A stretch of 64,000 nucleotides of DNA from Escherichia phage ph0011: the sequence record OP557969.1. The stretch is one strand, 5' to 3'. Position numbers and translations under genes: made by a program. Every line of letters begins with the position of its first letter. Within the stretch, counting starts at the first letter, position 1. The notes under the pieces are model-generated. The model was not told where the DNA came from. It searched no databases and saw nothing but the letters and a program-made list of their open reading frames with translations. Positions 28,960 to 61,594 of the stretch are shown piece by piece.

Positions 28960-35278
<6,319 letters not shown>

Positions 35279-38959: not shown

Positions 38960-41539
38960 ATGAAAATTTGTAAGTTAACTTTATTGGATGAGGTGAATTG
39001 TAAATTTGAGGGACTAGATCCCTCAATTCGACAAAAGATGATTCGTGCAACTGAATATGTGCTACCATATGCAAAGTTTACACCAGCAGGTCGTATTGGG
39101 CGTTGGGATGGTAAAGTACAATTCATGAACTTAGGTGGAAGCACATACTTTCATATGCTTGATAAACTTTTACCTATTCTTGACGAAGCTAATATTGATA
39201 TTGAATTAGAAGATCATAGACTAAATTACGGTTTCGAATTTGAACCAATTGATGAAAATATTTTTAGCGATGTTGTTTTTGGTCCTGGACACCACATGGA
39301 AGGTAAAAGTATTATCCTACGTGAACATCAGGTAAATGCAGTAAATTCGTGTTTAGCTAACCCACATGGGTTGGTTCTGGCAGCAACTGGTGCAGGAAAA
39401 GCCCAGCCACTTGATGAACCAGTTCTTACCATTAATGGATGGAAACGAATGGGTGACATAAAAGTTGGCGATATAGTAAAATGTCCTGATGGAACAAATG
39501 CTCCCGTCCTTGGTGTATATCCACAGGGAATTAAACCAACAGTACGAATGACATTCTCGGATGGACGAAGTGTCGAATGTTGTGATGAACATTTATGGAA
39601 TATATATAGTATTGCTGGTGAAAAAAACCCTGAAAAACGATGGAGAAACCTTTCTGTTAAAGAAATCATTGAATTACAAAATAAACAAAAACGTCCAGTA
39701 TATATTAAAACAATCACTGGTGATATTTTTGAAGAAAAAGAATTACCAATACATCCATATATTTTAGGTGTATTACTCGGTGATGGATGTTTAAGAAATG
39801 GTAATATAATGTTATCAAGTTCAGATGAATTTGTTATTGATAAGGTATCTTCATTATTACCTGATGGTTATATTATCAAGAAAAAACAATCATCAAAATA
39901 TGATTATAGTATTGTCATGGATGATACAAAAAAGAAAGAATATTTATGTAAAAATAATAAAGAAAGATATAACGAACTTAGGGTTATTTTGGAAGAACTT
40001 GGAATTTATAATAAGTATTCATATGAAAAGTTTATCCCTGAAATTTACAAAATGTCATCAATTGAACAACGTCTGCAACTCATTCAAGGATTAATTGACA
40101 CGGATGGTTATGTTGATAAAAGATTAAAAAACGGAAAGTCCCGAAATGTGGTGGAATTTTGTAGTACATCAGAAAAATTGGTTGATGATTTGAAAGATAT
40201 AATGAATAGTTTAGGTGGTTACGGTATTAAAAAATCTAAACAAACTTATTATACCTATGCAGGGGTAAAACAAAAAGGTCGCCCAAGTTTTAAAATGAGA
40301 ATTGATTATAATAATCTTAATGCCTTGGCTAGTTTACCTCGCAAAAAAGACTTTTTATATTCAGAAAGAAATCGTGTTGAAAATAAACTAAAAATTGAAA
40401 AAATTGAATATATTGAAGATAAAGAATGTCAATGTATCTATATTGATCATCCAGAACATCTATATATTACCAGAGATTATATCGTAACACACAATACAAT
40501 TATTTGTGCTGCTTTGGCGAAATCGGTACAAAAATATGGACGTTCTGTTATCATTGTCCCCAGCACTGACCTAGTACAACAAACATATGATGATTACATT
40601 ATGTGTGGATTAGATGCTGGTATGTTCTATGGTGCACAGAAAGATTTTGGTCATCAACATACTATTACTACTTGGCAATCATTTAACTCTCTATGGAAGA
40701 AAACCAAAAAAGGTGAAATTGAATTAACAGAACAAGACGTAAATGATTTTATTGATGGGGTAGTTTGTGTTATAGTTGATGAGTGTCAAGGTGCTGGTGG
40801 TGATGCATTAGTTCAAGTACTATCTAAAGTTATGAACAACGTACCATTGCGTTGGGGTCTTACTGGTACAATTCCGAAAGATCCGGTTGTTGCAGCGAAA
40901 ATCAAATGTAATGTTGGTGATGTTATATATAAAATCACTGCAAAGGAATTACAAGATAAAAAGATACTAAGTACATGTAATGTGAATTGCATTAAACTAA
41001 AAAGTAGTATGAAGTTTGCATCATATGCTGAAGAGTTGAAATACTTAGTAACTGACAGAGATAGAATGGCATATGTAGCGTCATTGATATCTGCGTTATC
41101 TGAATCAGGAAACACTTTAGTTTTAGTAGATAGACTTGAAGCAGGTGAGTTGCTATGTGAATTTTTAGGCATTCCCAAATCAGAATTCGTTCGTGGAGAA
41201 ACTAAAAAGAAAGATCGAGAATCATCTTATGGTGAAATTCGTTGGGCTGATAATAAAATACTTATTGCGACATACGGCGTTGCCAGTACTGGTATCAGTA
41301 TTTCAAGGCTATACAATGTAGTATTGATTGAACCTGGAAAAAGTTTCGTAAGAACTATACAATCAATCGGACGTGGATTACGCCGTGCTGAAGACAAAGA
41401 CCATGTTGAAATATATGACATTAGTGGTTCTAATAAGTATAGTGCAAAGCATTTACGTGAGCGTCTCGCTTACTATAAGGAAGCACAATATCCTCATACA
41501 GTAATAGACGTTAAAGATTGGGAAAACACAGCGGGATAA
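38960..41539 (+). CDS. uvsW: UvsW helicase containing an intein
   Basis: Exteins resemble T4 UvsW as recalled from memory (RIGRWDGKV; LAATGAGK | TIICAALAKS...IIVPSTDL; ATYGVASTGISI); 859 aa including a 365-aa insertion. Confidence 0.8.
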   Translation: MKICKLTLLDEVNCKFEGLDPSIRQKMIRATEYVLPYAKFTPAGRIGRWDGKVQFMNLGGSTYFHMLDKLLPILDEANIDIELEDHRLNYGFEFEPIDENIFSDVVFGPGHHMEGKSIILREHQVNAVNSCLANPHGLVLAATGAGKAQPLDEPVLTINGWKRMGDIKVGDIVKCPDGTNAPVLGVYPQGIKPTVRMTFSDGRSVECCDEHLWNIYSIAGEKNPEKRWRNLSVKEIIELQNKQKRPVYIKTITGDIFEEKELPIHPYILGVLLGDGCLRNGNIMLSSSDEFVIDKVSSLLPDGYIIKKKQSSKYDYSIVMDDTKKKEYLCKNNKERYNELRVILEELGIYNKYSYEKFIPEIYKMSSIEQRLQLIQGLIDTDGYVDKRLKNGKSRNVVEFCSTSEKLVDDLKDIMNSLGGYGIKKSKQTYYTYAGVKQKGRPSFKMRIDYNNLNALASLPRKKDFLYSERNRVENKLKIEKIEYIEDKECQCIYIDHPEHLYITRDYIVTHNTIICAALAKSVQKYGRSVIIVPSTDLVQQTYDDYIMCGLDAGMFYGAQKDFGHQHTITTWQSFNSLWKKTKKGEIELTEQDVNDFIDGVVCVIVDECQGAGGDALVQVLSKVMNNVPLRWGLTGTIPKDPVVAAKIKCNVGDVIYKITAKELQDKKILSTCNVNCIKLKSSMKFASYAEELKYLVTDRDRMAYVASLISALSESGNTLVLVDRLEAGELLCEFLGIPKSEFVRGETKKKDRESSYGEIRWADNKILIATYGVASTGISISRLYNVVLIEPGKSFVRTIQSIGRGLRRAEDKDHVEIYDISGSNKYSAKHLRERLAYYKEAQYPHTVIDVKDWENTAG
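39401..40495 (+). mobile_element. Intein (365 aa) with LAGLIDADG homing-endonuclease domain in the UvsW Walker A
   Basis: Begins AQPLDEPVLT directly after GAGK and ends YIVTHN before Thr+1; LAGLIDADG motifs ILGVLLGDG and LIQGLIDTDGY; homologous to the terminase intein. Confidence 0.75.
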
Positions 41540-41567: not shown

Positions 41568-42020
41568 ATGACAACAACAAGGATGTATAATAAAATGGAA
41601 TTAAGATCTAGTATTGCTTTTATCTGTGACCAAGAAACGTTAGATGTTATTGATGTATTGTTGAATGATGATGGTATCATGGATGATATGGTGTCTTCTC
41701 TTGACTATATCCCTGAACTAGAAACTGATGATACTAATGTATGGAGGTGTAACATTGATAGTGATTCTTGGATTAATATCTATGAATTGCAATCACGAAT
41801 TGATTCTAAAGTCGAATCATTAAAATATGATATAATCTATGCCAGTACTGACACGAAAACTTTCATCGATGTTGTAAGTCTAAGTGGTAATTTTGATTCA
41901 TATCTGGATACTGATGTTGATAAAATTCAAGAGATGTGTGAAACTTATGGACTTGAATTTTATGGACAAGAAGAACTGGATGATGAAGATTATTATGATG
42001 ATGAAGATTCGCAGTATTAA
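41568..42020 (+). CDS. Acidic hypothetical protein (150 aa)
   Basis: ORF in track; strongly acidic C-terminal tail (EELDDEDYYDDEDSQY). Confidence 0.35.
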   Translation: MTTTRMYNKMELRSSIAFICDQETLDVIDVLLNDDGIMDDMVSSLDYIPELETDDTNVWRCNIDSDSWINIYELQSRIDSKVESLKYDIIYASTDTKTFIDVVSLSGNFDSYLDTDVDKIQEMCETYGLEFYGQEELDDEDYYDDEDSQY

Positions 42021-42029
42021 GGAGATAAC

Positions 42030-42527
42030 ATGAACGTACTAACACCCGAAAATGTTTCGTTTGATATGGATTTAGTGACAGAACATATCCCCGAAGAAAT
42101 GTATTGTGTTTTGGACCTAAGTCCCAATGGTGAATCTGATTTTTATTTTAGACATATTTTAAACACGGTGTCATTTAATAGTATCAGTGCTGACCTCCAG
42201 ATTGGTGAAAAAGTTATTCAAGTCCCGTTAGGTTGGCAAATTATGTTAGGTGATGAAGATACTGGTATGGTTGAGATGTGTACAATTGAAAACATTCTTA
42301 ACATGAAAGAACCAAAAGCTTTTGTTTACAATCCTATCCGTTCAATGTATCCTAAGTTTGAACCAGTAAAAGTTCTACGTGTATTTGCATTAACTACAAA
42401 GTGGCAAATTCCAATGTTACCTAAGAAGAATTTATTATGTGTACCATTGAATGGTGGTGAAAATCCACCATGTGTGTACTTTGCTGATGAAAATGAAAAA
42501 ATTCAAGATTTATATCTAGGAGTATAA
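42030..42527 (+). CDS. Hypothetical protein
   Basis: ORF in track. Confidence 0.3.
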   Translation: MNVLTPENVSFDMDLVTEHIPEEMYCVLDLSPNGESDFYFRHILNTVSFNSISADLQIGEKVIQVPLGWQIMLGDEDTGMVEMCTIENILNMKEPKAFVYNPIRSMYPKFEPVKVLRVFALTTKWQIPMLPKKNLLCVPLNGGENPPCVYFADENEKIQDLYLGV

Positions 42528-42531
42528 AATA

Positions 42532-43377
42532 GTGTTTGATTTCAGTGATATTAAAAATAAGTCAGTCGATGATGATAATAAACCAACCCAGCATTCTTTT
42601 TCTATTGCTGAATTTCTAAAACACATTGACCGTGCAGATTATAAGTTCTATAATGAACTGACGGAAAAAGAACAAAAAGAGTTTACGCCATATACTGTAT
42701 TACGTTGGGTAAGCTCTTTGGATGATTCACTACAAGTCACATATCCCAGTAGTAAAGTTGAAAGTGTATTTGGTAAATGGAAAGCTGGTGGTAAAGAAGC
42801 ACTAACTGAACTAGTAACTGAATTAAAGGCTTCTGGGACTAAGGTTTCATCAGTGACGAAGTACTGTCATGGTGATTATGATTGGCGTATTAAATTTGCA
42901 GTCCAATCAAAAGATGATGCACATAAATTAATATCATCAATGATGGAATTTGGTGTCTCTGGTTCTGAAATTATTTCATTAGTAGATACTGAAGTAGTGA
43001 AATACCAACTTATTATGCTAAATGATATGGTTAATGATGGTTTCTGGGATATGAAAGAACATCCAGAATTAGTATATCAGCTTATGTGTTCTGTACATGA
43101 TATGATTGGTGCACAAGAAATGCCACGTAATTGGTTGAATTTTTCTAAAAATTTCAAAAAGGCAAATAATGAATTATTTGATTTGATTAAAAATTCACAG
43201 CCTGATACTATCGCTACTCAAATGAATGAAGATGAGTACAAGATTGTTTTATTACAGTATGATAAAAAAACATTTGAAACATTTCTTGACAATAATGGTT
43301 TTCAAGATAATGAAAAGAAATCTATGATGAAATTATTTAAAGAAGAATGTAAAAAATATGGCAAAGAAATCAAATAA
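42532..43377 (+). CDS. Hypothetical protein (281 aa)
   Basis: ORF in track with GTG start. Confidence 0.3.
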   Translation: MFDFSDIKNKSVDDDNKPTQHSFSIAEFLKHIDRADYKFYNELTEKEQKEFTPYTVLRWVSSLDDSLQVTYPSSKVESVFGKWKAGGKEALTELVTELKASGTKVSSVTKYCHGDYDWRIKFAVQSKDDAHKLISSMMEFGVSGSEIISLVDTEVVKYQLIMLNDMVNDGFWDMKEHPELVYQLMCSVHDMIGAQEMPRNWLNFSKNFKKANNELFDLIKNSQPDTIATQMNEDEYKIVLLQYDKKTFETFLDNNGFQDNEKKSMMKLFKEECKKYGKEIK

Positions 43378-44068
43378 ACAAGTATATACGTGTAAATTTT
43401 GTGATCGTGAATTTAAGCGAGAAGAAACAGTACAGACACATAAATGCATAAAACGTGACAGATACGAAAATAGACAAAGCCGCCAGATGATGGAGGCGTT
43501 TCGTATCTATATGCAATTTATGGAATTGAACAAATTTACATTTAAAAAAGGCGTAGAGCCTTTTATTGCTTTTATAAAGTCAAAGTACTTTAACGATTTT
43601 TATAGTTTTGCTGAATACTATTTGAATAATAGAGATATTATTAATGTTGACGAGTTTGTAAAGTACTTAATTATTAATAACAGACCAATTACAGAATGGA
43701 GTACTTACAAAGCAAAAGATGAATGGATATTAAAAACGATTCGTTCTGAGCATCCAAAAGAAGCGATTGCAAGAAGTGTGATATCGTTGGTTGAATGGGC
43801 TGAAAAATTGAATGTACAATGGAATACTTTCTTTGAAAATGTGAGTTCTGCCCGTGCAATTGCATGGATTGAGAGTGGGAAAATATCACCATGGATCATT
43901 TGGTTATCTCCAAAACAAAGTACTAATACATTTTTTAAAAAGCTATCAAACTCAGAAATTGAATACATACTTAAATACATTGATCCAAGTTATTTTGAAA
44001 TTAAAACGATCAAATATAAAACGGATTGCGATGAAATTAAGAGTATGCTACGTGAGGCAGGATTATGA
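43358..44068 (+). CDS. Hypothetical protein with N-terminal C2H2-like zinc finger
   Basis: CKFCDREFKREETVQTHKC. Confidence 0.3.
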   Translation: MAKKSNKQVYTCKFCDREFKREETVQTHKCIKRDRYENRQSRQMMEAFRIYMQFMELNKFTFKKGVEPFIAFIKSKYFNDFYSFAEYYLNNRDIINVDEFVKYLIINNRPITEWSTYKAKDEWILKTIRSEHPKEAIARSVISLVEWAEKLNVQWNTFFENVSSARAIAWIESGKISPWIIWLSPKQSTNTFFKKLSNSEIEYILKYIDPSYFEIKTIKYKTDCDEIKSMLREAGL

Positions 44069-44394
44069 ATGGAAAAAGTATATATAATAAAATACCAGAA
44101 GGGTATGTACCTGTACCAAAAGAACAAAAAACAAAACAAATATCTCTTCTTAGACAAGGATCTATTACTGAAATAACTTTGGATGGTAAAACATTTCAAG
44201 TTCATGATCCCGCTCGTGTTGAAAAAATAATTTCTTTAGTAGAACGACATGAAGAACGTTTTTTTAGTTTAAGTCAGGAGTTAGCAAAGACGAAACAAAA
44301 TTATAAAATATTAGAGAATCAAATAACCACCTTGACTAATACCGTTAAACAGTTACAGGAGCAAGTAAAAAATGCAGGATTCGACAGATTCTAA
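44065..44394 (+). CDS. Hypothetical protein
   Basis: ORF in track overlapping the upstream stop. Confidence 0.3.
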   Translation: MNGKSIYNKIPEGYVPVPKEQKTKQISLLRQGSITEITLDGKTFQVHDPARVEKIISLVERHEERFFSLSQELAKTKQNYKILENQITTLTNTVKQLQEQVKNAGFDRF

Positions 44395-45010
44395 ACATTA
44401 CAGAAAAGCCAGAACTGATATTGATATTGACTTCAAGGATAGTAAAAGCGTCATCGCTAAACTTCCATGCGTGCGAAGTACTGAGAAAATTACTGAGGAT
44501 GGTTTAATCCCACACAATAGTGGTGTTCATTTTGATAATATACCAATTGACCCAATCACTGGATTGGCGAGTATACAATATAAAGAAGCTGAAAGGTTAG
44601 GGTATCAAAAAGTTGATATTCTTTCACAGTCAGCTTACATGTATGTTCGCGATAGAGAGCATTTAAAAGAACTAATGAATCAGGAACCGAATTGGGATCT
44701 TTTACTAGAACCCGAAATTGTAGAGCATCTTTCGCAAATTAAAAAACACGTAACTTTATTAAATGTATGGAAGCCTAAATCAATTGACGAACTTGCAATG
44801 TTTATTGCTATGATTCGACCAGGAAAAAGGCAGTGCCAAAGTATGAACACATGGGACGAAGTAAAAGCCACCATATGGGATTATAGTACTATTGGCACTG
44901 ACCAATCAGGAAATAAATTGCGATATTTCAAAAAGCCACATGCTTATGCATATAGCTTAATGATTGTAGTCCAACTAAATGCTTTAGTTGAACACCTTAC
45001 TTCTTCTTAA
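44372..45010 (+). CDS. Hypothetical protein
   Basis: ORF in track. Confidence 0.3.
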   Translation: MQDSTDSKHYRKARTDIDIDFKDSKSVIAKLPCVRSTEKITEDGLIPHNSGVHFDNIPIDPITGLASIQYKEAERLGYQKVDILSQSAYMYVRDREHLKELMNQEPNWDLLLEPEIVEHLSQIKKHVTLLNVWKPKSIDELAMFIAMIRPGKRQCQSMNTWDEVKATIWDYSTIGTDQSGNKLRYFKKPHAYAYSLMIVVQLNALVEHLTSS

Positions 45011-45350
45011 GTGCCACATTACGACGCTTGATGCGTTTCTGTGGTAAATTGCTTAAAGAAACTTCTGGACCACATACGAAATTCACCGATGGTGTATCAA
45101 ATCTATGTGTATACGGTTCAAATTTCTCCATCTCTTCTTGAAAGAATAGACACACTGGAATGGTTCTATTGCTTTGCCACCACCAATCGTGTGCTATACC
45201 TAACAATTCGTCTTGCATTGACTCATTCATGTCATCGAAACAGTACATAGTAGTATACTGTTTACTTTTGATTTTGATGATACCAATGAACGTTTTACCA
45301 TCATACTGGATTACAGTAATAAATGGTGGAATAGTGTTATATTGATTCAT
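44997..45350 (-). CDS. Hypothetical protein on the opposite strand
   Basis: Only minus-strand ORF in this block; Trp-rich segment HDWWWQ. Confidence 0.3.
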   Translation of the reverse strand: MNQYNTIPPFITVIQYDGKTFIGIIKIKSKQYTTMYCFDDMNESMQDELLGIAHDWWWQSNRTIPVCLFFQEEMEKFEPYTHRFDTPSVNFVCGPEVSLSNLPQKRIKRRNVALKKK

Positions 45351-45407
45351 ATTAGTTCCATAAATATTAGTATAAATTTATACCTATTATTTATGGAAGG
45401 AAAAACT

Positions 45408-46385
45408 ATGGCTCATCACGGCGTGTTTATGTACCCTTATAATCAGGAAGTATCATTGGGCAATTTTAATATGCCATATAGCAATGAAAAACTAACTATA
45501 TATAAAGGGGCAAATAATAATTTATCTTTTACTGTTCACAACGCTGATGGAAAGTATACTTTATTGAAAGAAAATGAATATCTTACATTTATGATTTTTG
45601 ATGTACGAAATAATACTAAACTATTTGATGTTGTTTTGGAAAAACAAGAACCAAGTTGGCTATCCGAAAGCGGTCAGGCCCGACAAACATTGGGAAATAA
45701 AAAGAAAGTATATTATGGATGTATTGTTCCAGCAGGTGTTATCCAAGATACCAGTCCTGGTTCCAAATATAGATGGAGTATCACTAAAGTAACAATGGAC
45801 GGTTCACTTGTAGAACCAACGCAATATCTATATACAGGTATGAACTATGAAGCATCAGCAGAGTTAATTATTTCAGACCAAGCTGTACCTGTATTTGTCC
45901 CTAGTACTGAAATATCTGTCAACCAAAATTCTGCATGGACGACTATTAAGCGTTTATATCATGAGCCTATTGGTAATGGTATGATTGGGGAATATGATAT
46001 TCTTGCATCAACACCCCTCCCTGCACAAATGCAGTTTGGATTGGTTGATGGATTGAGTAGTATAGCAATCTATTTTGATAAATTTATTGGTAGGATACAG
46101 CTTCAAGGGTGTTTGTGTAATGACGTACCAAATGATAATGAAAACTATAAATGGTTTATTATTAAATTAGATGGAAAGGATTATATTGAAAATGGGGTGG
46201 ATGTGGAAGGATTTCCAGAAGAACTCGATGGAATTGAAGCATTTAATTTTAAAGGAAATTATATGTGGTTAAGAATTGTAGTAGCTATTCATCCTAAAAC
46301 TGTTCCAGTACCATATGACTATGCTGCTGTGAGAAAAGTGTATGACCCTTTCTTAACTGTACCTAAAATTTTGATTCGCAGGTGA
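45408..46385 (+). CDS. Hypothetical protein (possibly structural)
   Basis: Likely start MAHHGVF at 45408 (track ORF starts at 45342); late-promoter-like CATAAATA upstream. Confidence 0.3.
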   Translation: MAHHGVFMYPYNQEVSLGNFNMPYSNEKLTIYKGANNNLSFTVHNADGKYTLLKENEYLTFMIFDVRNNTKLFDVVLEKQEPSWLSESGQARQTLGNKKKVYYGCIVPAGVIQDTSPGSKYRWSITKVTMDGSLVEPTQYLYTGMNYEASAELIISDQAVPVFVPSTEISVNQNSAWTTIKRLYHEPIGNGMIGEYDILASTPLPAQMQFGLVDGLSSIAIYFDKFIGRIQLQGCLCNDVPNDNENYKWFIIKLDGKDYIENGVDVEGFPEELDGIEAFNFKGNYMWLRIVVAIHPKTVPVPYDYAAVRKVYDPFLTVPKILIRR

Positions 46386-46411
46386 GACAAAACCCGAAGT
46401 TGTGCTATAAT
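46384..46411 (+). promoter_or_regulatory. Sigma70-type promoter: GAGACA, 16-nt spacer, TGTGC-TATAAT (46406..46411), upstream of the primase
   Basis: Conserved promoter family member. Confidence 0.55.
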
Positions 46412-46440
46412 CATTTGTAAGAAAAGACAAGGATTAACTT

Positions 46441-47496
46441 ATGAACGCTGTACAAAACATAATGGCACAAATAATGAATGACCCAGTACCTGCAATTGGC
46501 ACATGGACACATCACAACTGTCCCGCGTGTGTGTTCAGAGGACATTCGAGGCCGGACATAAAGAACCGTGGTAATCATATGTTCAATGCCGATGGTTCCG
46601 TTTCATATAACTGCTTTAACTGTAGTTTGAAAACTGGCTGGCAACCAGGAAAATATATGAGCAAAGATATGGAGTCTTTGCTCATTTCTTTTGGTGCACA
46701 AGATAAAGAAATTGAATTAGTTAAGTTTTATATTAAAGAAATGGTTGATAGTGGTGAATATGCTACACAAGAAACCGTTGTAACAAAACTATATGACCGA
46801 ATAACGGTACGTGATTTACCATCAAATGCTAAAACATTTTGGGATTGGGCTTCACTACCAGAAGATAAAATTCCGCAAGAATTTTTGAGTGTTTTACATC
46901 ATGTAAATGAAAGAAATCCATATTTGTTGGATTTGGAATTATATTGGTCACCTAATAAAGAACATAAAATGTATGATAGATTTATGATTCCTTATTACAT
47001 GAATGGTAAAATAATTGGTTATGCTGCTAGACATAAATTAAAAGATCCGGGAAGCACATACAGATTTATAAATCAGGTAAGTACTAATATATTGTATAAT
47101 TATGATTTATTGAAAGATGACAGAATAAAAACGATTTTAGTATGTGAAGGGCCGTTGGATGCAGCATTGATGGGCGGTGTATCTGCTAATAACTTTAAAT
47201 TATCAAACTTGCAGATTGACGTATTAAAAGATGCCCAGAAAAAAGGGAAAAGGATAGTTATTGTTCCAGATAGAGACAAAGATGGATTAATAACAATAGA
47301 CCAAGCACTTGAAAATGGATTCAGTGTGTCTTTCCCTGATTTTGGTACAGTAAGAGAAGGTAGTACGATACGTCATATCAAAGATTTTGAAGAGGCGTGT
47401 TCGCGATTTGGTAGGTTATTTTGCTTACAATTAATACATGATAGTATAGTAGATGAGCCATTTTATATTAAAGCTCAAACTGATAAATGGATGTAA
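46441..47496 (+). CDS. 61: DNA primase gp61
   Basis: N-terminal zinc ribbon (HHNCPACVF...NCFNCS) and Toprim motifs (VCEGPLDA, VPDRDKDG). Confidence 0.8.
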   Translation: MNAVQNIMAQIMNDPVPAIGTWTHHNCPACVFRGHSRPDIKNRGNHMFNADGSVSYNCFNCSLKTGWQPGKYMSKDMESLLISFGAQDKEIELVKFYIKEMVDSGEYATQETVVTKLYDRITVRDLPSNAKTFWDWASLPEDKIPQEFLSVLHHVNERNPYLLDLELYWSPNKEHKMYDRFMIPYYMNGKIIGYAARHKLKDPGSTYRFINQVSTNILYNYDLLKDDRIKTILVCEGPLDAALMGGVSANNFKLSNLQIDVLKDAQKKGKRIVIVPDRDKDGLITIDQALENGFSVSFPDFGTVREGSTIRHIKDFEEACSRFGRLFCLQLIHDSIVDEPFYIKAQTDKWM

Positions 47497-47518
47497 TACA
47501 TATAATGAGGGAACATAG

Positions 47519-49039
47519 ATGATTCAAAGCACAGTGGATGTGAAACAATATGGGATTAATGCACAACAATACTTATTATCTCAGATTTTCAGTAATCCTG
47601 ATTTGTATGTACGTTGTAAAAATATCCTTAAACCTGAATATTTTGATAAAACATTTCATGAAAGTATTCAATTCGTACATGATTACGCCGCAAAATATAG
47701 TTCTTCTCCAACGTTGAAAGATATTGAAGTTAAAGGTGGTTATCAATACGATCATTATGAAGTACAAGAATTACATAAACAATCAGTACTTGATACCTGT
47801 GGTGAGTTTTGTCGCCATAAAGCATTAGCATTGGCAGTTGAAAAAGGAATGGAACTTGTTCATCAGAAAAAATATGGTGGAATCGAAGAGCTAATCCGAG
47901 AAGCGATGTTGGTAACTGTACAGAATGAGTTAGGTTTGGACATTTTTGAAAATCCAGAAGATACCATTCGCTCACTAAGTTCAATGCAAGGGTCATTTAA
48001 AAGTGGATGGGAAACTCTTGATTATAAACTTTTCGGTGGTTTTGGGCGTAGAGAGTTAGAGATCTTTGCTGCTGCATCAGGTGGTGGTAAATCAGTAGTG
48101 TTGCAAAATTTAGCAGTAAACTTTGCTAAAGCTGGTATGAATGGTGCATACATCTCACTAGAACTAGCTGAAGAGTTGGTTGCAGTTCGTATCTATGGTA
48201 TGATGACAGAATCGAAGCTCAGTAATGTAAAAAATGAAGCTGAAAAGATTGGATTTGCCGTTAAGGTAGAAGGTAAAAATAGTGGCATCTTGCGTATTAA
48301 ACGTTTACCTGAATCTGTAACAACAACAGATGATATTGAAAGCTATTTGCGTGAATTACAAATTAAGTTGGAAATAAAACTTGATTATGTATGCGTGGAC
48401 TATTTGGATCTATTAACTTCTAATCGTCTTGGTCCAAATGATAAATCCAACACATTTACAAAAGACAAATTTGTATCAGAAGAATTACGTGCTCTTGCGT
48501 CCAAAATGGATCTAACAGTTTTCACTGCATCACAGTTTAACCGTAGTGGGATGGATGAAGATAAGAAAAGTCAAAGTCAGATTGCTGGTGGTATTTCTAA
48601 AATTTATACTGCGGATAACGTAATTTATATTGAAGCAAAAAAAGACACTGGTGAATTATGGTTTGATTTTCAAAAAACACGTAACAGTAGTGCTGTTGGT
48701 TCACGTTTGCGTATGTCATATGATATTGATTCATTGCGTGTTCTTGATCATGCAACTACAGTACAACAAATGGAAACTGAAGGTAATGGTTTTCGACACA
48801 GTGGACTCTCTAAGATTGGTGGGGGTAATATGGTGTTACCACCTAGTACAATGCAAACATTGCGTCATACGCTCTCTGGTGCTGCCAAAACACCATCTAC
48901 ACAACCAAACAATCAGATAACACTAAATACTGATAGTGCTCCTAACACCGCAACACAAAATGACTCACAGTCACCGCCACAACACGCGGCTTCTGACCGT
49001 GTTCATGCGATGAAGCAATGGTTAAATCAAAGGAAATGA
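47519..49039 (+). CDS. 41: Replicative helicase gp41 (DnaB-like)
   Basis: Walker A AAASGGGKS, Walker B-like VCVDYLDLL; directly follows the primase. Confidence 0.8.
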   Translation: MIQSTVDVKQYGINAQQYLLSQIFSNPDLYVRCKNILKPEYFDKTFHESIQFVHDYAAKYSSSPTLKDIEVKGGYQYDHYEVQELHKQSVLDTCGEFCRHKALALAVEKGMELVHQKKYGGIEELIREAMLVTVQNELGLDIFENPEDTIRSLSSMQGSFKSGWETLDYKLFGGFGRRELEIFAAASGGGKSVVLQNLAVNFAKAGMNGAYISLELAEELVAVRIYGMMTESKLSNVKNEAEKIGFAVKVEGKNSGILRIKRLPESVTTTDDIESYLRELQIKLEIKLDYVCVDYLDLLTSNRLGPNDKSNTFTKDKFVSEELRALASKMDLTVFTASQFNRSGMDEDKKSQSQIAGGISKIYTADNVIYIEAKKDTGELWFDFQKTRNSSAVGSRLRMSYDIDSLRVLDHATTVQQMETEGNGFRHSGLSKIGGGNMVLPPSTMQTLRHTLSGAAKTPSTQPNNQITLNTDSAPNTATQNDSQSPPQHAASDRVHAMKQWLNQRK

Positions 49040-49042
49040 TAA

Positions 49043-49315
49043 ATGTCTAGTAAATCCAATAAAAAGAATCTACTTGATAGTATAGTTGACTATACACCAG
49101 AGAAAGACACACTACAAAGTTTTAGTAATCGTGCAGACCACGCGATAAACTCTGTGATTCATTTATTGGAGAGCATTGAAGATGAGTTTAACCAAACTGA
49201 TGCCGAAGATTTAAAAAAACGTTTATTTCTAAGTATAAAAAACCGAGATTATAAAAAGTTTCAAAAAGGGTTAGAAAACATAGCACTTGATGAAAAACGT
49301 AATAAGGGAAATTGA
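49043..49315 (+). CDS. Hypothetical protein (90 aa)
   Basis: ORF in track. Confidence 0.3.
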   Translation: MSSKSNKKNLLDSIVDYTPEKDTLQSFSNRADHAINSVIHLLESIEDEFNQTDAEDLKKRLFLSIKNRDYKKFQKGLENIALDEKRNKGN

Positions 49316-49477
49316 TATGAAGAAAAAGAATATTAAAGAGAATGCATCATCCGGTGCTACTTCAGCAGGTGCTATTGCATCAGTCAGTACTGGTTTGCAT
49401 TATCCATTACATCGTCGATTGCCTCCAACAGACTTCTTTGGATATAAAGTAGTAGAGACAAAAGATAAGGACACAGA

Positions 49478-49870
49478 ATGAAACCATATACTTTCTACAC
49501 TATACATACTGTAGTAGATATCGGTGATGGTAAAACTCCAACAATAATAGATTCAAAGTTTACTGGTGCAATGAATTTATCTAGATTGTTGGAGGCAATT
49601 ATGGTATATGATTATCCTATGATGGTAAGTGTTGTTAAAAATGAAGTTGATTTATATAAAGATAATAATTCATCTTTTTATAATATACCAATTTCATGGG
49701 GTAAATGTACAATAAGCACATTTAAATTTGCACTACCAATGGATGTTGAACTTAGATTGAATGGTATTCCATTAGTTCTACCAACTGAATTAAATGGTAA
49801 ACGAATAACTAAATTTATCACATCTGGTGATGATATCAACATTAGCATCAGTAAACAGACCTTTTCTTAA
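49478..49870 (+). CDS. Hypothetical protein (130 aa)
   Basis: ORF in track. Confidence 0.3.
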   Translation: MKPYTFYTIHTVVDIGDGKTPTIIDSKFTGAMNLSRLLEAIMVYDYPMMVSVVKNEVDLYKDNNSSFYNIPISWGKCTISTFKFALPMDVELRLNGIPLVLPTELNGKRITKFITSGDDINISISKQTFS

Positions 49871-49926
49871 TTGTGATAAATATCATAAAGTGAGACAAAG
49901 GTCTTTTTTATTTTTATGGAGAAAAT

Positions 49927-50871
49927 ATGGATATAAACCAAACAGCAACCGAGCTTCAAAAGTTCGCAGATGCACATAATTTAAATGTTGATGTTTCTGT
50001 AATTCTTGATAATATGGATGCAGGTGATTTCATCACCTTAAATTCTGCGATTGATAATTCTGACAATCGTGAAATATTCCAAATTTTACAAAAATACAAA
50101 GCACAGATGAGTGAATGTTATGAATACTTCAGTACTAAAAATGTTAGTAAACATATAAACGAAAGTACTGAACTTTATAGTATTATTGATGCAATGTCAC
50201 TAAAACAATTAGAAGAAATGTATAATAAAAAATATACTTATTCTGATACAACAAAATTAACCACACAGGAATTAAAAGCGATTGTATTTGAGGATTTTCA
50301 AAATCAAACAACACAAATGCAAGCTAAACAAATTGCTAAAATGAATGTTTCTCAAGACCAACAGCAAGTTAATCCACAAACACAAGCTAAAATGAAACAA
50401 GCTGAGCTACAAAGAAATGCTAATAATATAAAGGTTAGTGTTCCTGGTACACAAGACGGTACTGATGCAGTTGAGCCAGTTGTGGGTATTGATCCAGGTC
50501 AAACACCAGAACAATCACTAGTAGTGACAAAGAGTGGTACTAAACCGAATGAATTGAATGTTTTCCCATTAAATGATGTCAATCCTATAGACAATCAAAA
50601 CACGCCAATCCGTGAGGAAAAATCCCCACAAGAAATCAATAGTGAACTAATGGGTAATTCAAGTTTAGAGTCTGATAGTAACCCTGATACACAATCACCA
50701 CTATCACATCACGCCCCTGGTATGGGTGAAATGATTCATGCTATTTCTGATATCGAAAAAGAAGATGATATTTATGGTGATGAAAGTGTAATGGCAAACC
50801 AGTCCCAATCTGAGAATGATGACATGGTGGATCAAATTATTGATTATTGTCATCGTATGCGAGGTCGTTGA
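49927..50871 (+). CDS. Hypothetical protein (314 aa)
   Basis: ORF in track; Gln-rich middle segment. Confidence 0.3.
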   Translation: MDINQTATELQKFADAHNLNVDVSVILDNMDAGDFITLNSAIDNSDNREIFQILQKYKAQMSECYEYFSTKNVSKHINESTELYSIIDAMSLKQLEEMYNKKYTYSDTTKLTTQELKAIVFEDFQNQTTQMQAKQIAKMNVSQDQQQVNPQTQAKMKQAELQRNANNIKVSVPGTQDGTDAVEPVVGIDPGQTPEQSLVVTKSGTKPNELNVFPLNDVNPIDNQNTPIREEKSPQEINSELMGNSSLESDSNPDTQSPLSHHAPGMGEMIHAISDIEKEDDIYGDESVMANQSQSENDDMVDQIIDYCHRMRGR

Positions 50872-51085
50872 TGAGAACAGTACTGAATGTGCATGGTCAC
50901 AATACGATAGTTTCCAATGAAGAATATAAACTGTTACAAAAGATAAAAGCACGCGGTACTGTTCCAGTTGAAAAAGTAAATGAATATTATCAGGAACTAG
51001 CTAATAAAATGGTATCGCGTGGTGTTCTACATAAAATAGAAAATGATGATGGTACTGAATCATACCAAACTGTTAGGAGTAGTAA

Positions 51086-51760
51086 ATGAATTACGAATAT
51101 GATCAACAATCCGTTAATCAGATGGCAGATTTATTAAGTGGTCTTAATGATATTGAAGCTGGTGAAACACATAATGCCGCAGGTGTTCCATATAAAGCAA
51201 GTGGTGATATTGGTGCAATGACTGCAATTTTAACTTCATTAAATGAAGCTGGAATGGATTACGGTACTGATCCAGAGAAGATTCATCCGAACGTTGTGCC
51301 ATACAATGCACCATTCAATGAACACATGAATGGACAACAATCTACCATTCAGCCATATAGTCAACCATCTAAGCCGAAAACTAATTGGAGCTTAGTAGAA
51401 GAAAAAGTTCAAGGAACTAAATCTACCAAAGTGTATAGTATCAAGTGTAATCATAGTTCACAGATTATTATGAATAATATTATGATGTATGAAGCTGCAC
51501 TTACATTAGTTAATCTTTTGAATGAAGGACGAATGTTGACAGATGCAAAACTCCTTGGTATAATTAGTTCTGGATTACAATACACAAATGTAATCAGTGA
51601 GGCATTAAAAGCTGCTCAAAGGCGACAACGTGTTCTTAATGAATCAAAGTATGATGAAGCAAAAGAATTAGATATAATTATTGCAGAAAAGAAAGCAGAA
51701 GCTTATAAATTGAAAGAGCGTGTATTGAACTTTCTTAAAAATGAAGGGTATATTACCTGA
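51086..51760 (+). CDS. Hypothetical protein (224 aa)
   Basis: ORF in track. Confidence 0.3.
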   Translation: MNYEYDQQSVNQMADLLSGLNDIEAGETHNAAGVPYKASGDIGAMTAILTSLNEAGMDYGTDPEKIHPNVVPYNAPFNEHMNGQQSTIQPYSQPSKPKTNWSLVEEKVQGTKSTKVYSIKCNHSSQIIMNNIMMYEAALTLVNLLNEGRMLTDAKLLGIISSGLQYTNVISEALKAAQRRQRVLNESKYDEAKELDIIIAEKKAEAYKLKERVLNFLKNEGYIT

Positions 51761-53508
51761 TGTTAGATGAATTGAAGAAATTCTTAAAAAGCAAAAACAA
51801 AAAAACATGGGTTAAGTTGGTAAACAATAATGAATTATATTTTAAATATGTTCGTGAATTGTTCCCAACTAAACCAATGAATGAAGCATTGTATCTTATC
51901 ATGAATGACATGGTGCGTGCACCATCTGCCCCATGTGGTTCTGAATGTAAATTTATTAATGGTTCATATGATAAGTATTGTTCTAAGCCTACAAAACCAA
52001 ACAAAAATCGTGATAATGGGTTTTGTGTAGTATGTAATGAGCATTGGAAGCAAAACAAACTCAAAAATACTAAACAAAAATGTCTTGATGTTTATGGTGT
52101 CGAACATCATTGGCAAAGAAATGATGTAAAAGATAAAATAAAAAGTACTAATATGAAACGATATGGTGTTGAACACAATTCACACGTCGAACATGTACTT
52201 GAAAAAAGAAAGGAAACTTTCATTGAAAGATATGGTGTTGAATCACCGTTATCATCTGTTGAAATTCGTGATAAGATAAAAGCAACAAACATTGCAAAAT
52301 ATGGTGTTGAAAATTATGGAAGTACATGTGAATGTATCGAAAAACGAAATAAAACAATGCAAGAATTATATGGTTTTAGTAATGCACAACATGTAAAGAA
52401 GTTTTCAAATGAATCAAAGATTACTAAATCTAAAATAAGATATGATAAAATTTTATCTATTATTAACCCTTCATATAAAGAACTGTTTGAATATGATGAC
52501 TTGATAGATTCAACCAATGAAAGTAAACTTCCGTACTATTGTGAAATACACAAAGGACTGTTTTATAGTAATTATAAATATGGTATAGTTTGTGATGTTT
52601 GCAACCCACCTGTATATAGTTCAATACAAAATGAAATAAAAAACTTTGTATCAACATTGACTGAATGTAACATTATCATGAATGATAGAAGTAATGGGTA
52701 TGAGTATGATATATACATCCCTGAACTTCAGATAGCAATAGAAGTCAATGGAATGTATTGGCATAAAAGTGATATGGTTGATAAGTATTACCATAGAACA
52801 AAAACAATAAATTCGATAGAACGTGGGATTAGATTGATACATATCTTTGAAGATGAATGGTACTGTAAACAGGAAATTATTAAAAATAGATTAATGAATG
52901 TTTTTCAGTGTTCTAGAAAGATTTATGCCAGAAAATGTATTGTTAAAAAAATTAACACTAATATTTGTTATGATTTCTTAAACACTAATCATATACAAGG
53001 ATATACTAAATCTGGAATAAACTATGGTTTGTTTTATAATCAAGAATTGATTGCAGTAATGACGTTCGGAAAAAGTCGATATGATAAAAAATTTGAATAT
53101 GAACTAATACGATACTGCTCACGTGGAACTGTTGTTGGTGGTGCTAGTAAATTATTGTCTGCATTTGAGCGTGAATACAAACCATTGTCGTTGATGAGTT
53201 ACGCTGACTTGAATTGGGGGTCAGGACAGTTATACATATCTCTTAACTTTGAAAATTTAGGATACACAGAACCCAAATATTTTTATTATGATCCAAAAAC
53301 AAAACAGCGTTTTTCTAGACATAAATTTAGAAAACATAAATTAATTGAAATGGGCTACGACTCATCTAAAACTGAAGAAGATATATGCTTAGGTGAAATT
53401 GGATTGTATAAAATATACGATTCTGGTAATTGCAAATTTGCTAAATATTATTACAACACAAACATTACAGGAGATATTGAAAAATGTCCAAATCGTACAA
53501 AAAACTAA
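51760..53508 (+). CDS. Large free-standing nuclease-like protein, paralog 2 (putative homing endonuclease)
   Basis: Same architecture as 16890..18488: N-terminal Cys cluster, YGV repeats, YDIYIPELQIAIEVNGMYWH motif, conserved C-terminal YELIRYCS...VVGGASKLL. Confidence 0.45.
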   Translation: MLDELKKFLKSKNKKTWVKLVNNNELYFKYVRELFPTKPMNEALYLIMNDMVRAPSAPCGSECKFINGSYDKYCSKPTKPNKNRDNGFCVVCNEHWKQNKLKNTKQKCLDVYGVEHHWQRNDVKDKIKSTNMKRYGVEHNSHVEHVLEKRKETFIERYGVESPLSSVEIRDKIKATNIAKYGVENYGSTCECIEKRNKTMQELYGFSNAQHVKKFSNESKITKSKIRYDKILSIINPSYKELFEYDDLIDSTNESKLPYYCEIHKGLFYSNYKYGIVCDVCNPPVYSSIQNEIKNFVSTLTECNIIMNDRSNGYEYDIYIPELQIAIEVNGMYWHKSDMVDKYYHRTKTINSIERGIRLIHIFEDEWYCKQEIIKNRLMNVFQCSRKIYARKCIVKKINTNICYDFLNTNHIQGYTKSGINYGLFYNQELIAVMTFGKSRYDKKFEYELIRYCSRGTVVGGASKLLSAFEREYKPLSLMSYADLNWGSGQLYISLNFENLGYTEPKYFYYDPKTKQRFSRHKFRKHKLIEMGYDSSKTEEDICLGEIGLYKIYDSGNCKFAKYYYNTNITGDIEKCPNRTKN

Positions 53509-54119
53509 TGGAAACTGCTTCTCGTGCTGAAGCAATGAAATTTATTAAATTGAATGAATCTAATATTGAAAAGGCAGAAATCGTCCTTTCAGTTAAAGGT
53601 GAAATTGTTGATAAATTACAACGTCAATCAGAGGTTATTAATAACATGGGTGTTGACGTACTAGGCCCACTACTGGATCGTATTAAAGCTGAACAGGGTT
53701 TGGATGCCGCACAAAATTTTAGTGATAATGTTCGTCATCTTCTACAACATGCTGTAGCTACTTTAATGGACGTGAAAGACAAAATCAGTACTGAAACACT
53801 AAAACTAACTGGTGATATTACTGATGGTCCTGATGTTTCTGATATTGGTAGTGAAGATGTTGATATTGACATTGCCAGTGACACCCCAACTTTTGATATG
53901 GATGCTGATGCAGATTTTGAAGATGATATTATTTCTGAGCCTGTTCCAACTGAGCGTGAGATGAAAGAATCGGTTAAGCCACGTAAAGTTGGTGTAAAAA
54001 TGGAAAGTATTCGCGGTACTGTAGGAACTAAATATTTTAGTTCAAAAGACGAAATGAAAACATGGCTATCTGAGAATGAAAAGAAAGTTAAACGAGTTCT
54101 AGGGTATGTTAAAAAATAA
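53484..54119 (+). CDS. Acidic hypothetical protein
   Basis: ORF in track; Asp/Glu-rich central region. Confidence 0.3.
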   Translation: MSKSYKKLMETASRAEAMKFIKLNESNIEKAEIVLSVKGEIVDKLQRQSEVINNMGVDVLGPLLDRIKAEQGLDAAQNFSDNVRHLLQHAVATLMDVKDKISTETLKLTGDITDGPDVSDIGSEDVDIDIASDTPTFDMDADADFEDDIISEPVPTEREMKESVKPRKVGVKMESIRGTVGTKYFSSKDEMKTWLSENEKKVKRVLGYVKK

Positions 54120-54135
54120 TAAAGGGTGAATCTAC

Positions 54136-54471
54136 ATGAGGTTTAGTGATCTTACTGAAGAGGCTCCTGGAAAAGATATACGCAATATGATCACGACTAT
54201 TGCGTTGTCTTTAATGTCCACTGGTAGAGAAGATGTGAATGTTCAATCTTTAATTTCTGAAATTAAAAAGAGAACCAACATCGATGTTCCATACAATGTG
54301 ATGATGGATATTTTGAATTCCCTACCTTTTGTACAGGATGCTAATTCAGATATTGTAACTTTTGTTGGTAATTCAGCAGAAGGTTCAGGTGAATCTGAAC
54401 AAAATTCGGAAGAGCAAGTTGAAGATTGGGCAACAAAAGCTGCTGTGTCAGCAAATAAACAAAAAAACTGA
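54136..54471 (+). CDS. Hypothetical protein (111 aa)
   Basis: ORF in track. Confidence 0.3.
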   Translation: MRFSDLTEEAPGKDIRNMITTIALSLMSTGREDVNVQSLISEIKKRTNIDVPYNVMMDILNSLPFVQDANSDIVTFVGNSAEGSGESEQNSEEQVEDWATKAAVSANKQKN

Positions 54472-54510
54472 AACAAATAAAAATATAATGCTATAATTAG
54501 GAGTACACGG

Positions 54511-55230
54511 ATGTACACACCACCAATTGTTAGCAGATATACATACGTTGGTTATAATAGAATTGAAGGCGGCCCAGAAGGTCGCCTTTATTCAACTCCA
54601 ACAGGTAATCTGCCATCAGTAACAACAATTCTTAGTGCGACCTCAAATGATGAGGGTTTAAAGAAGTGGAGAGAATTCGTTGGTGAAGAAAAAGCTAATG
54701 AAATCACATTAGAAGCATGTACAATTGGTACTTTTATGCATGAGAACTTAGAATTTAGATTAGAAGGCAAACCAGACCATGAAGGTGGTATGCCAGTTAG
54801 AGTTCTAGCACGAAGGATGGCTGATAAGATTCAGGAAGAAGCATGGCCTCGAATCAATGAAGTGTGGGGACAGGAAGTCCCCTTGTATTATGAAGGTTTG
54901 TGGGCAGGTACAACAGACTTAGTAGGTGTTCATGATGGAATTCCAACCATTATGGATTATAAAAATTCTCGTAAGGTTAAGAAGTGGTCACAAATTGAAA
55001 ATTATCGTATGCAAATCGCTGCGTATGCATTAGCTCACAATCAAATGTTTGGTACTAATATAGAACGTGGTGTTATTTTCATCTGTGTAAGAAAAGACCC
55101 TAATAATCTACAATATCAAGAGTTTATTATTGAAGGACAAGACTTCAAAGATGCTGTTAATATGTGGATTGAACGTGTAGAACAATACTATATTTTACGT
55201 GGAGAAATTGAATCAAATGGAGCAGCATAA
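54511..55230 (+). CDS. PD-(D/E)xK nuclease of the RecB/Cas4/lambda-exonuclease type
   Basis: Motifs D...IMDYK (D-x-K core) and QIAAYALA (QxxxY); no Cys cluster. Confidence 0.5.
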   Translation: MYTPPIVSRYTYVGYNRIEGGPEGRLYSTPTGNLPSVTTILSATSNDEGLKKWREFVGEEKANEITLEACTIGTFMHENLEFRLEGKPDHEGGMPVRVLARRMADKIQEEAWPRINEVWGQEVPLYYEGLWAGTTDLVGVHDGIPTIMDYKNSRKVKKWSQIENYRMQIAAYALAHNQMFGTNIERGVIFICVRKDPNNLQYQEFIIEGQDFKDAVNMWIERVEQYYILRGEIESNGAA

Positions 55231-55771
55231 AAAAATGAAACAAGATCTATATACAATTCGTGCTTTAGAAAGTAAAGGGTATGATTTAGAAGAAGTTATC
55301 AAACTAAGTGATGAAGAAATTGACAATCTTGATTTATCACATAAACTGATTCTAAATATTAAAGATTATAAACAGCGTGGTGCTAAACCTGTAGAAGTAA
55401 TTAAAGAACAAATTGCACAAGATATTAGTATCGATGAGGTATCACGTAATGTGCCACCAGAAGTAATCCAAGAGTATGCTGTCAATAGTGAAGAACAGGT
55501 AAAAGTTTCTAAAGAAGTCGAAAGTATGGCAGAAGAACTAGTTCCTGAAGTCAAAGAAGATGAAATTGTTATTGAGCGAGTGGTTTCTTCTAAAGAAGAT
55601 TTGGATATTATCAAAGAAGCACTACAAACTAAAGAGCTTAAAAGTGTATCTAGTTATGTAAAACATTTAAAATCTATCGTCCCAGAACAGATTCTATCTT
55701 CTGTCGATAGTTCAGTAGTATCTCAGTTGATCAATGAGCGTATTACTGAAGTTAAAGAAAAAGCTAAATAA
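55199..55771 (+). CDS. Acidic hypothetical protein
   Basis: ORF in track; Glu-rich. Confidence 0.3.
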   Translation: MEKLNQMEQHKKMKQDLYTIRALESKGYDLEEVIKLSDEEIDNLDLSHKLILNIKDYKQRGAKPVEVIKEQIAQDISIDEVSRNVPPEVIQEYAVNSEEQVKVSKEVESMAEELVPEVKEDEIVIERVVSSKEDLDIIKEALQTKELKSVSSYVKHLKSIVPEQILSSVDSSVVSQLINERITEVKEKAK

Positions 55772-55798
55772 TCCTATGATACTATAGGAGATAGTTTT

Positions 55799-56380
55799 AT
55801 GGCACAACAACAAATTGCATTACAACAAGTACGAACTGGTAAACAACGAGATTTACCAGATGCATTAGAAAAAGGTCAGATAGGATTTAGTACTGATGTG
55901 GGTCGTGTATTCATTGGTCTACCATCATCATCTGACCCAGCTAGTCTAGTTGCAGGAAGAACATGGACAACTGATCCAAATTCAGGAAAAGAAAACGTAG
56001 AAATAATTACAGAATTTTCACCGTGGAGAACGGTTTCCAAAATAGTCAATAGGCCATTTAAAGTGGATCTCCCACAAAATCAAGATAAAATTGAAGTTAT
56101 TCTTGATAGTGAGAGTCGAGTCTTTATTGATTATATTGCATATGATGATACTGAAGAGGTTTTAGAATCTGGAACAGTCCAAATTGTGGCGATTGGCTCA
56201 AAGGCGATGTTTGCACAGTCTAATAACACAAATCGAAATGATGCGATTATATCTATTACATTTGAAGATCCTGCATATGATCCAACAACTGGAAATATGC
56301 AATTCAATATAGTTAACTCGGATTATTTAAATGCAGGATATCATATAGAATTTGTATATCGTGGGTGGGACAAACCTTAA
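55799..56380 (+). CDS. Hypothetical protein (193 aa)
   Basis: ORF in track, followed by a terminator. Confidence 0.3.
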   Translation: MAQQQIALQQVRTGKQRDLPDALEKGQIGFSTDVGRVFIGLPSSSDPASLVAGRTWTTDPNSGKENVEIITEFSPWRTVSKIVNRPFKVDLPQNQDKIEVILDSESRVFIDYIAYDDTEEVLESGTVQIVAIGSKAMFAQSNNTNRNDAIISITFEDPAYDPTTGNMQFNIVNSDYLNAGYHIEFVYRGWDKP

Positions 56381-56400
56381 AAGGCGTCCCGCCTTTTTCT
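56378..56400 (+). terminator. Rho-independent terminator
   Basis: AAGGCG-TCC-CGCCTT followed by a T-tract. Confidence 0.55.
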
Positions 56401-56443
56401 TCCACTAAAAAAGTAATTTACATCAAAAAAACAAGGATGACAT

Positions 56444-58762: not shown

Positions 58763-58767
58763 ATAAA

Positions 58768-61593: not shown

Positions 61594-61594
61594 T

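Follow-up and report, generated by a model that had tools for sequence, protein, structure and literature searches.

The sequence analysed here, a window of 64,000 nucleotides (nt) from Escherichia phage ph0011 (OP557969.1), belongs to a PBECO4/121Q-like jumbo coliphage of the genus Asteriusvirus, and its genes are approximately 90–96% identical at the nucleotide level to those of phages JP4, slurp01, PBECO4, 121Q and UE-S1. An open reading frame (ORF) on the plus strand, 38960..41539, encodes 859 amino acids of a UvsW-like helicase, and the ORF listing shows that its frame is unbroken through an insertion of 365 in-frame codons (39401..40495, +), which runs from Ala to Asn inside the Walker A motif GAGK/T (a slash marks the junction here and below). 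From the evidence presented in the following sections, this insertion is very probably a full-length mobile class 3 intein, equipped with a LAGLIDADG homing endonuclease and placed between the Lys and the Thr of the helicase P-loop.

An in-frame insertion in the P-loop of a UvsW-like helicase

The outer parts of the 859-residue ORF are assigned by Pfam to ResIII/DEAD and Helicase_C, and its middle to LAGLIDADG. When the insertion is removed, a 494-residue protein is obtained, which matches T4 UvsW (PDB 2oca; E 3e-24, residues 39–458) as well as PHROG 16 'DNA helicase' (2e-80), and helicase homologues are present in 2,299 phage records, many of which are labelled UvsW. With UvsW homology over nearly its full length, helicase motifs I and II and a C-terminal helicase domain, the host protein is, as judged from these matches, a UvsW-like superfamily 2 (SF2) helicase, and the name is a fair one. 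Its N-extein (38960..39400, +; 147 residues) ends in the first half of the Walker A motif (...LAATGAGK), as seen from the ORF listing and from the helicase of PBECO4, which lacks the intein and can be aligned without a gap, while its C-extein (40496..41539, +; TIICAALA... to the stop) holds the rest of motif I, the ResIII/DEAD motifs and Helicase_C, as seen from Pfam and the alignment. The whole ORF thus reads ...LVLAATGAGK/AQPLDEPVLTINGW...ECCDEHLWNI...ECQCIYIDHPEHLYITRDYIVTHN/TIICAALAKSVQKYG. Upstream of it lie homologues of gp32, UvsX and UvsY and a DnaQ-like exonuclease gene, the last of these between the UvsY homologue and the helicase gene.

The insertion is absent from all 43 phage records that match the helicase gene by megablast, since each of these matches covers at most 56% of the gene and falls into two pieces. 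When 60 nt from either flank are joined, they align without a gap to PBECO4 (LAATGAGK/TIICAALAKSVQKYG versus LAATGAGK/TLITAALSKKVQEYG), in which the empty site reads GAGK/TLITAALS; the corresponding empty-site DNA of PBECO4 or 121Q is ...GCTACTGGTGCAGGTAAA/ACTCTCATTACTGCTGCA... The first codon of the insert is GCC (Ala) and the last is AAT (Asn), followed by ACA (Thr, +1), and this boundary cannot slide, because Lys−1 differs from Asn365 and Ala1 differs from Thr+1. An earlier sequence-only reading had placed the intein at 39401..40495, with an Ala start and hence no Cys, Ser or Thr nucleophile at residue 1. All of this is borne out: the interval amounts to exactly 365 codons, beginning AQPLDE... 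and ending ...IVTHN, residue 1 is Ala (GCC, 39401–39403), and the gap-free alignment to the empty PBECO4 allele yields an Ala start, not the Cys, Ser or Thr start that was named as the finding that would speak against that reading.

The 365-residue intein (39401..40495, +; Ala1 to Asn365, estimated from its length at about 42 kDa when free) consists of a splicing (HINT) domain into which a LAGLIDADG homing-endonuclease domain is inserted, as delineated by its absence from the 43 relatives, Pfam, AlphaFold2 and Foldseek. The G+C fraction (GC) is 0.24–0.28 across most of the insert, versus 0.33–0.38 in the flanks. A separate feature of its composition is a GC of 0.42 at 39300..39599, which comprises the first ~200 nt of the intein (blocks A–B) and the adjoining extein; neither the remainder of the intein nor the genome as a whole (background about 0.33–0.36) reaches this value.

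Class 3 residues in blocks A, B, F and G

Class 3 inteins were defined in 2010 (PMC2807308), and 1,701 of them had been catalogued by 2020 (PMC7891396). They are recognized by a non-nucleophilic residue 1, Trp at B:12, Cys at F:4, Thr at G:5 and Thr or Ser at +1 (PMC2807308; PMC5050341; PMC7891396), and the Trp, Cys and Thr (WCT) residues have been found experimentally to be catalytic (PMC2807308, PMC6195587, PMC7664689, PMC5222942). All of these residues are found in the UvsW intein. Block A, AQPLDEPVLTINGW (39401..39442, +), begins with Ala1 and therefore offers no N-terminal nucleophile. Block B, GRSVECCDEHLWNI (39563..39604, +), contains Cys60 (B:6), Cys61 (B:7), His64 (B:10) and Trp66 (B:12; TGG, 39596–39598), and is aligned to AAHQW of 6rix and AQHQW of 6bs8. 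In block F, ECQCIYIDHPEHLYI (40424..40468, +), Cys343 occupies F:2 and Cys345 (TGT, 40433–40435) occupies F:4; the latter is the predicted initiating nucleophile and is aligned to Cys124 of 6rix and Cys118 of 6bs8. Block G, IVTHN/T (40481..40498, +), supplies Thr363 (G:5), His364 and Asn365 and is followed by Thr+1 (ACA, 40496–40498), which is at the same time the Walker A Thr; the Thr-His-Asn assignments come from the profile alignment, and each of these three residues is shared by 120 of 120 homologues.

A search of the Protein Data Bank (PDB) by phmmer gave as its best matches 6riz (gp41-1_WCT), 6qaz (gp41-1), 6bs8 (Mycobacterium smegmatis DnaB intein 1) and 6rix/6riy (M. chimaera DnaB1), the best single-sequence matches being gp41-1 itself and its WCT variant (6qaz and 6riz, E 7e-8 and 1.6e-10). 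A profile built from the UvsW intein and 41 of its homologues, which we aligned to the PDB sequences, returned the same matches with stronger scores. In this alignment His64/Trp66, Cys345 and Thr363 correspond to His65/Trp67, Cys124 and Thr143 of MchDnaB1 (6rix), and to His65/Trp67, Cys118 and Thr137 of Msm DnaBi1 (6bs8). The alignment to class 1, 2 and 3 references that the sequence-only reading had called for therefore places the WCT residues on those of two proven class 3 inteins. As far as an alignment can tell, the class 3 (WCT) reading is thus supported at every defining position: Ala1, Trp66 at B:12, Cys345 at F:4, Thr363-His364-Asn365 and Thr+1.

Homologues of the intein were collected from 5.8 billion proteins, among which 857 relatives were found at E ≤ 1e-10; the column counts given in this text refer to the best 120 of these 857, which are 35–44% identical to the UvsW intein over its full 365 residues. 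Position −1 is Lys in 118 of the 120, and position 1 is Ala in 115, Ser in 2 and Glu in 1, with Gln2/Pro3 likewise kept in 115. His at B:10 and Cys at F:4 occur in all 120 and Trp at B:12 in 119, each residue of Thr-His-Asn at G:5–7 is found in 120 of 120, and +1 is Thr in 113 and Ser in 7. The UvsW intein departs from none of the columns that are invariant across the family. Two further predictions of the sequence-only reading hold, namely DEHLW in block B (residues 62–66, with EDHLW in the terminase intein described below) and a C-terminal Thr-His-Asn (residues 363–365, with THN in the terminase intein as well). Its third motif, a Cys pair near block F, is indeed present in both inteins (CQC, residues 343–345, and CRC), but only the second Cys, Cys345, is F:4. 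The pair as such does not qualify as a class 3 signature, given that only 48 of the 120 homologues have Cys at F:2, against 62 with Ala, whereas the F:4 Cys never varies.

Predicted fold and endonuclease domain

The AlphaFold2 model of the UvsW intein, computed with the alignment of its homologues, has a mean pLDDT of 93.4 and a pTM of 0.91. Searched at full length against the PDB with Foldseek, it retrieves PI-SceI, the Tli and Pho VMA inteins and PI-PfuI; the splicing half is closest to 6bs8, 6rix and 6qaz (Msm DnaB, MchDnaB1 and gp41-1), and superposes on the Msm DnaB intein with a root-mean-square deviation of 1.3 Å over 69 columns, at 35% identity. The confident model and its matches to intein, Hedgehog and BIL structures thus point to a HINT (Hedgehog/intein) fold, a beta horseshoe built from the N- and C-terminal segments.

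Between the two halves of this predicted splicing domain, Pfam recognizes LAGLIDADG_3 (3.7e-12), and the family profile matches PI-SceI at 2e-12. Motif 1, YILGVLLGDG (39758..39787, +), contains the acidic Asp128, which is nearly invariant in the family, followed by an invariant Gly129, and motif 2, LIQGLIDTDG (40079..40108, +), contains the acidic Asp235, with Asp233, Asp235 and Gly236 all invariant. Both motifs are therefore intact with their acidic residues, and the domain is predicted to be a homing endonuclease.

Relatives of the UvsW intein

Nearly all of the best 120 homologues are inteins in the P-loop of PhoH-family ATPases, a few being in DnaB, AAA or DnaA-like proteins, and none of the 120 carries a precomputed Pfam ResIII/DEAD helicase annotation. 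The nearest sequence relatives are accordingly the PhoH-hosted 'AQPL...' inteins, uncharacterised members from phage and metagenome contigs, which share with the UvsW intein the AQPLD start, ECC(D/E)EHLW, (A/C)QC, VTHN/T, a LAGLIDADG domain and the GK/T site, but which reside in an unrelated host protein and are no closer than 44% in identity. A close relative or donor was found neither in phage records (best 40%, tblastn), nor among the 5.8 billion proteins (44%), nor in IMG/VR (41%).

The characterised class 3 DnaB inteins, Msm DnaBi1 (6bs8), MchDnaB1 (6rix/6riy) and the prototype from Mycobacterium phage Bethlehem, share with the UvsW intein Ala1 (Pro1 in the prototype), His B:10, Trp B:12, Cys F:4, the C-terminal Thr-His-Asn, Ser or Thr at +1, and a P-loop NTPase as host. 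The Msm and Mch inteins are 32–35% identical to it in the N-terminal splicing half and superpose at 1.3–1.5 Å. They differ, however, in being mini-inteins of 139–145 residues with no endonuclease, as opposed to 365 residues with an intact LAGLIDADG domain, in having Ala-Asp rather than Cys-Cys at B:6/B:7 and ALAL rather than AQPL at the start, and in being hosted by DnaB instead of a UvsW-type SF2 helicase. As class 3 references we used the solved structures 6bs8 and 6rix in place of the Bethlehem prototype. By tblastn, no relative of the UvsW intein was found in the Bethlehem sequence (AY500153, 30–52 kb), where the annotated DnaB-like gp62 is without an intein and gp52 has a different, Ser-starting intein with a position-1 nucleophile. 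The gp41-1 intein (cyanophage-like; 6qaz; a class 1 split intein) and its engineered WCT variant (6riz) resemble the UvsW intein in the EEHL of block B and the C-terminal THN, but natural gp41-1 has Cys1, Phe B:12 and Asp F:4 and splices by the class 1 route, and the WCT graft is without productive splicing.

The best hits in phages were in Proteus phage 10 and Salmonella phage SA002. The helicase of Proteus phage 10 has no extein similarity to the UvsW-like helicase, and its intein starts with Leu1. Phage SA002 has a 39% identical member of the intein family at MN445183.1, 217442..220032, a place covered by two adjoining coding sequences labelled 'RAD2/SF2 helicase 1' and 'helicase 2', so that an intein-containing gene may have been split there by the annotators.

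Weighing other explanations

An ordinary class 1 intein with a true Cys, Ser or Thr start, the Ala being an artefact of the boundary or of sequencing, would need only a single G-to-A or G-to-T change in GCC to give Thr or Ser, and in one place at least, the extra c at 31454 in the terminase gene (see below), a base-call or indel problem in the window is likely. Yet the gap-free empty-site alignment fixes the boundary, the Ala-Gln-Pro-Leu start is kept in 115 of 120 independent homologues, and the remaining positions do not fit either: a class 1 intein opens with Cys, Ser or Thr and as a rule has Thr at B:7 and Asp at F:4, whereas the UvsW intein has Ala1, Cys61 and Cys345 there, with Thr at G:5. 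We consider this explanation to have next to no chance of being correct. A class 2 intein fares only slightly better and is very improbable. Ala1 is common to the UvsW intein and the KlbA inteins. Class 2 as known consists solely of KlbA orthologues, which have Cys+1, Ser G:6, Thr B:7 and Asp F:4 (PMC4031507), while the UvsW intein has Thr+1, His364, Cys61 and Cys345 at these positions. Besides, Thr is a poor nucleophile for a direct attack on an amide, and the UvsW intein has the WCT triplet, by which class 3 is defined and which class 2 inteins lack. Just as negligible as the class 1 explanation is a class-3-like intein in which the block B Cys61 (B:7), rather than Cys345, attacks first. B:7 adjoins the scissile bond and is a Thr in class 1, and Cys is found there in 105 of 120 homologues and at B:6 in 99; but B:7 is Ser, Thr, Gly or Asp in the other 15, whereas the F:4 Cys is never replaced, and in characterised class 3 inteins B:7 (Ser62 in the Bethlehem prototype, MP-Be DnaB) is dispensable and the F:4 Cys obligatory (PMC2807308).

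Somewhat less remote, although still improbable, is a decayed intein that no longer splices, which would leave the helicase effectively a pseudogene or its precursor merely cleaved. Precedents exist in gp41-1_WCT, for which cleavage without splicing predominates and spliced product is formed in traces at best (PMC7664689), and in a class-3-like Arthrobacter intein that is a documented pseudogene (PMC3196547), and the neighbouring terminase intein gene is frameshifted. On the other side, the 859-codon frame is unbroken, all family-invariant columns and both LAGLIDADG motifs are kept, the AlphaFold2 model is confident throughout, and UvsW homologues are retained in all relatives.

Several points weigh against the interpretation of the insertion as a mobile class 3 intein and should be borne in mind. 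Its boundaries, catalytic residues, fold, family conservation and absence from relatives are shown by the present analysis, but its splicing, the role of Cys345 and its endonuclease activity are expectations from homology. Grafting W, C and T onto the related class 1 intein gp41-1 did not produce a splicing-competent class 3 intein (PMC7664689), and because this graft failed, the triplet alone is insufficient for the mechanism. The Cys residues at B:6/B:7 are lacking in characterised class 3 inteins, which have Ser, Asp or Ala there, and the details of activation could therefore differ. Finally, the genome of this phage is a mosaic, in which identity to PBECO4 drops as low as 82% in other stretches of 100 nt, a point that bears on the evidence for homing discussed below.

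A second intein in the terminase large subunit

In a search for further inteins of the class 3 type, only two were found in the window, the second being in the terminase large subunit (31461..32480, +; 340 residues). This intein reads SLALDTP...CEDHLW(67)...CRC(319)...PTHN/TT, is inserted in the Walker A motif GK/TT, has Trp67, Cys319 (F:4), Thr338 and Ser1, and is 28% identical to the UvsW intein. The genome thus carries two class 3-type inteins at the same Lys/Thr P-loop position of two unrelated ATPases. The sequence-only reading had ascribed one common pattern to both; HLW, the Cys pair and THN are all present in the terminase intein, but in the window it starts with Ser1 and not with Ala. 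Among 37 WCT inteins, three have been described with Ser1 or Cys1 (PMC2807308).

Terminases of Rak2-like jumbo phages were already known from the literature to carry inteins, and those of Asteriusvirus and Rak2-like phages (UE-S1 and JNE01, with Rak2 and K64-1 in the literature) share the Walker A GK/T site, the WCT residues and LAGLIDADG with the UvsW intein. Unlike the latter, which occurs in no other deposited genome, the terminase intein is already present in two: its orthologues have nucleotide identities of 95.8% in UE-S1 and 80.7% in JNE01, and most other Asteriusviruses are empty at this site. Both orthologues start with ALANNTP (Ala1), whereas the window copy starts with SLALDTP (Ser1), and its first seven codons (31461..31481) show 9 differences in 21 nt from UE-S1, a density of substitutions that looks like a short gene-conversion patch. 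The first LAGLIDADG motif (31836..31862) is LVGLWLGDE in the window versus LVGLWLGDG in UE-S1 and JNE01, and this Gly-to-Glu change at the last motif position may impair the endonuclease of the terminase intein.

Relative to UE-S1, JNE01 and 121Q, an extra c is present at 31454 (ATG-c-GGA-AAA-TCA; 31451..31463), so that the N-extein of the terminase (ORF 31193..31495) is not read in the same frame as its intein and C-extein, whose ORF is 31470..33854. The terminase is presumably indispensable, and for this reason the frameshift is probably a sequence error; it could also be a real lesion. Programmed +1 frameshifting was considered and judged unlikely, as CAA-AUG-C-GGA is not slippery and the orthologues are without the extra base.

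In another part of the window (41600..62000), related Asteriusvirus genomes cover 92% of the 20.4 kb in two pieces at ~90.6% identity, and ~1.6 kb within it is either absent from these relatives or diverged beyond the reach of megablast.

Proposed splicing and homing

By homology to the proven class 3 inteins MP-Be DnaB, Msm DnaBi1 and MchDnaB1, the following course may be proposed. The helicase would be made as an 859-residue precursor with a split ATP-binding loop and should, because of this split, have no activity before the intein is excised. With Ala at residue 1, splicing cannot open in the usual way, by an acyl shift onto that residue. Instead Cys345 (F:4), aided by His64, Trp66 and Thr363, would attack the Lys−1/Ala1 peptide bond to give a branched thioester intermediate. 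The N-extein would then be moved from Cys345 to the side chain of Thr+1, Asn365 would cyclise to free the intein, and an O-to-N shift would restore GAGKT in the 494-residue helicase. In co-infection, helicase alleles that lack the intein would be cut by its endonuclease domain (Asp128/Asp235), and the intein would then be copied into them.

This homing step is suggested by the intact LAGLIDADG motifs together with the divergence of the flanking extein. Across the junction, extein identity to PBECO4 goes through 96, 85, 81, 82 and 74%, and then 87, 95 and 98–100% downstream, which delimits a tract of 74–85% identity (39060..39400 plus 40496..40650) in a helicase gene that is otherwise 92–100% identical; the low values lie within about 300 nt of the junction, and identity is back at 95–100% farther out. 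No phage record is more than 81.5% identical to this ~450-nt extein tract. Such a pattern is suggestive of co-conversion from an unsampled donor during recent homing, but not proof of it, as the genome is mosaic elsewhere too. The UvsW intein may have come in recently from an Asteriusvirus-like donor that has not been sampled, and it is perhaps still homing actively.

The Cys-Cys pair of block B (39578..39583, within ECCDEHLW), which is typical of this subfamily and would sit beside Cys345, invites a more speculative thought. The AQPL/ECC-x-EHLW inteins, that is, the UvsW intein and hundreds in phage PhoH, might form a distinct class 3 sub-lineage in which the B:6/B:7 Cys-Cys (plus the F:2 Cys in the present case) serves as a redox or metal switch; we regard this as unlikely. 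It would parallel the Cys48–Cys118 trap of M. smegmatis DnaBi1, but would be family-wide. If true, a reversible disulfide with Cys345 would make the maturation of UvsW dependent on the redox state of the infected cell.

Significance

The UvsW intein represents a known intein class, though its host gene is new and its sequence very divergent, and not a new mechanism; what is known of intein mechanisms is unchanged by it. No description of a UvsW intein was found among the most relevant papers naming both terms, and none in a spread sample of 60 of the 2,299 UvsW-homologue records carries the insertion. For annotation, the 859-residue "helicase" should be described as a precursor, the mature product being a UvsW-like enzyme of 494 residues with a restored GAGKT P-loop. 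A sequence this divergent (at most 44% identity in three large collections) could also serve as an orthogonal class 3 splicing domain for protein engineering.

The P-loop Lys/Thr is a 'classic' intein insertion site (PMC5050341), and class 3 inteins are described as monophyletic, probably derived from phages, and concentrated in helicases and terminases (PMC2807308; PMC4031507). The UvsW-type helicase of an Asteriusvirus now joins their hosts, and the presence of two P-loop inteins in one genome, together with nearest relatives in PhoH, fits a published proposal in which class 3 inteins are carried from one P-loop gene to another by phages.

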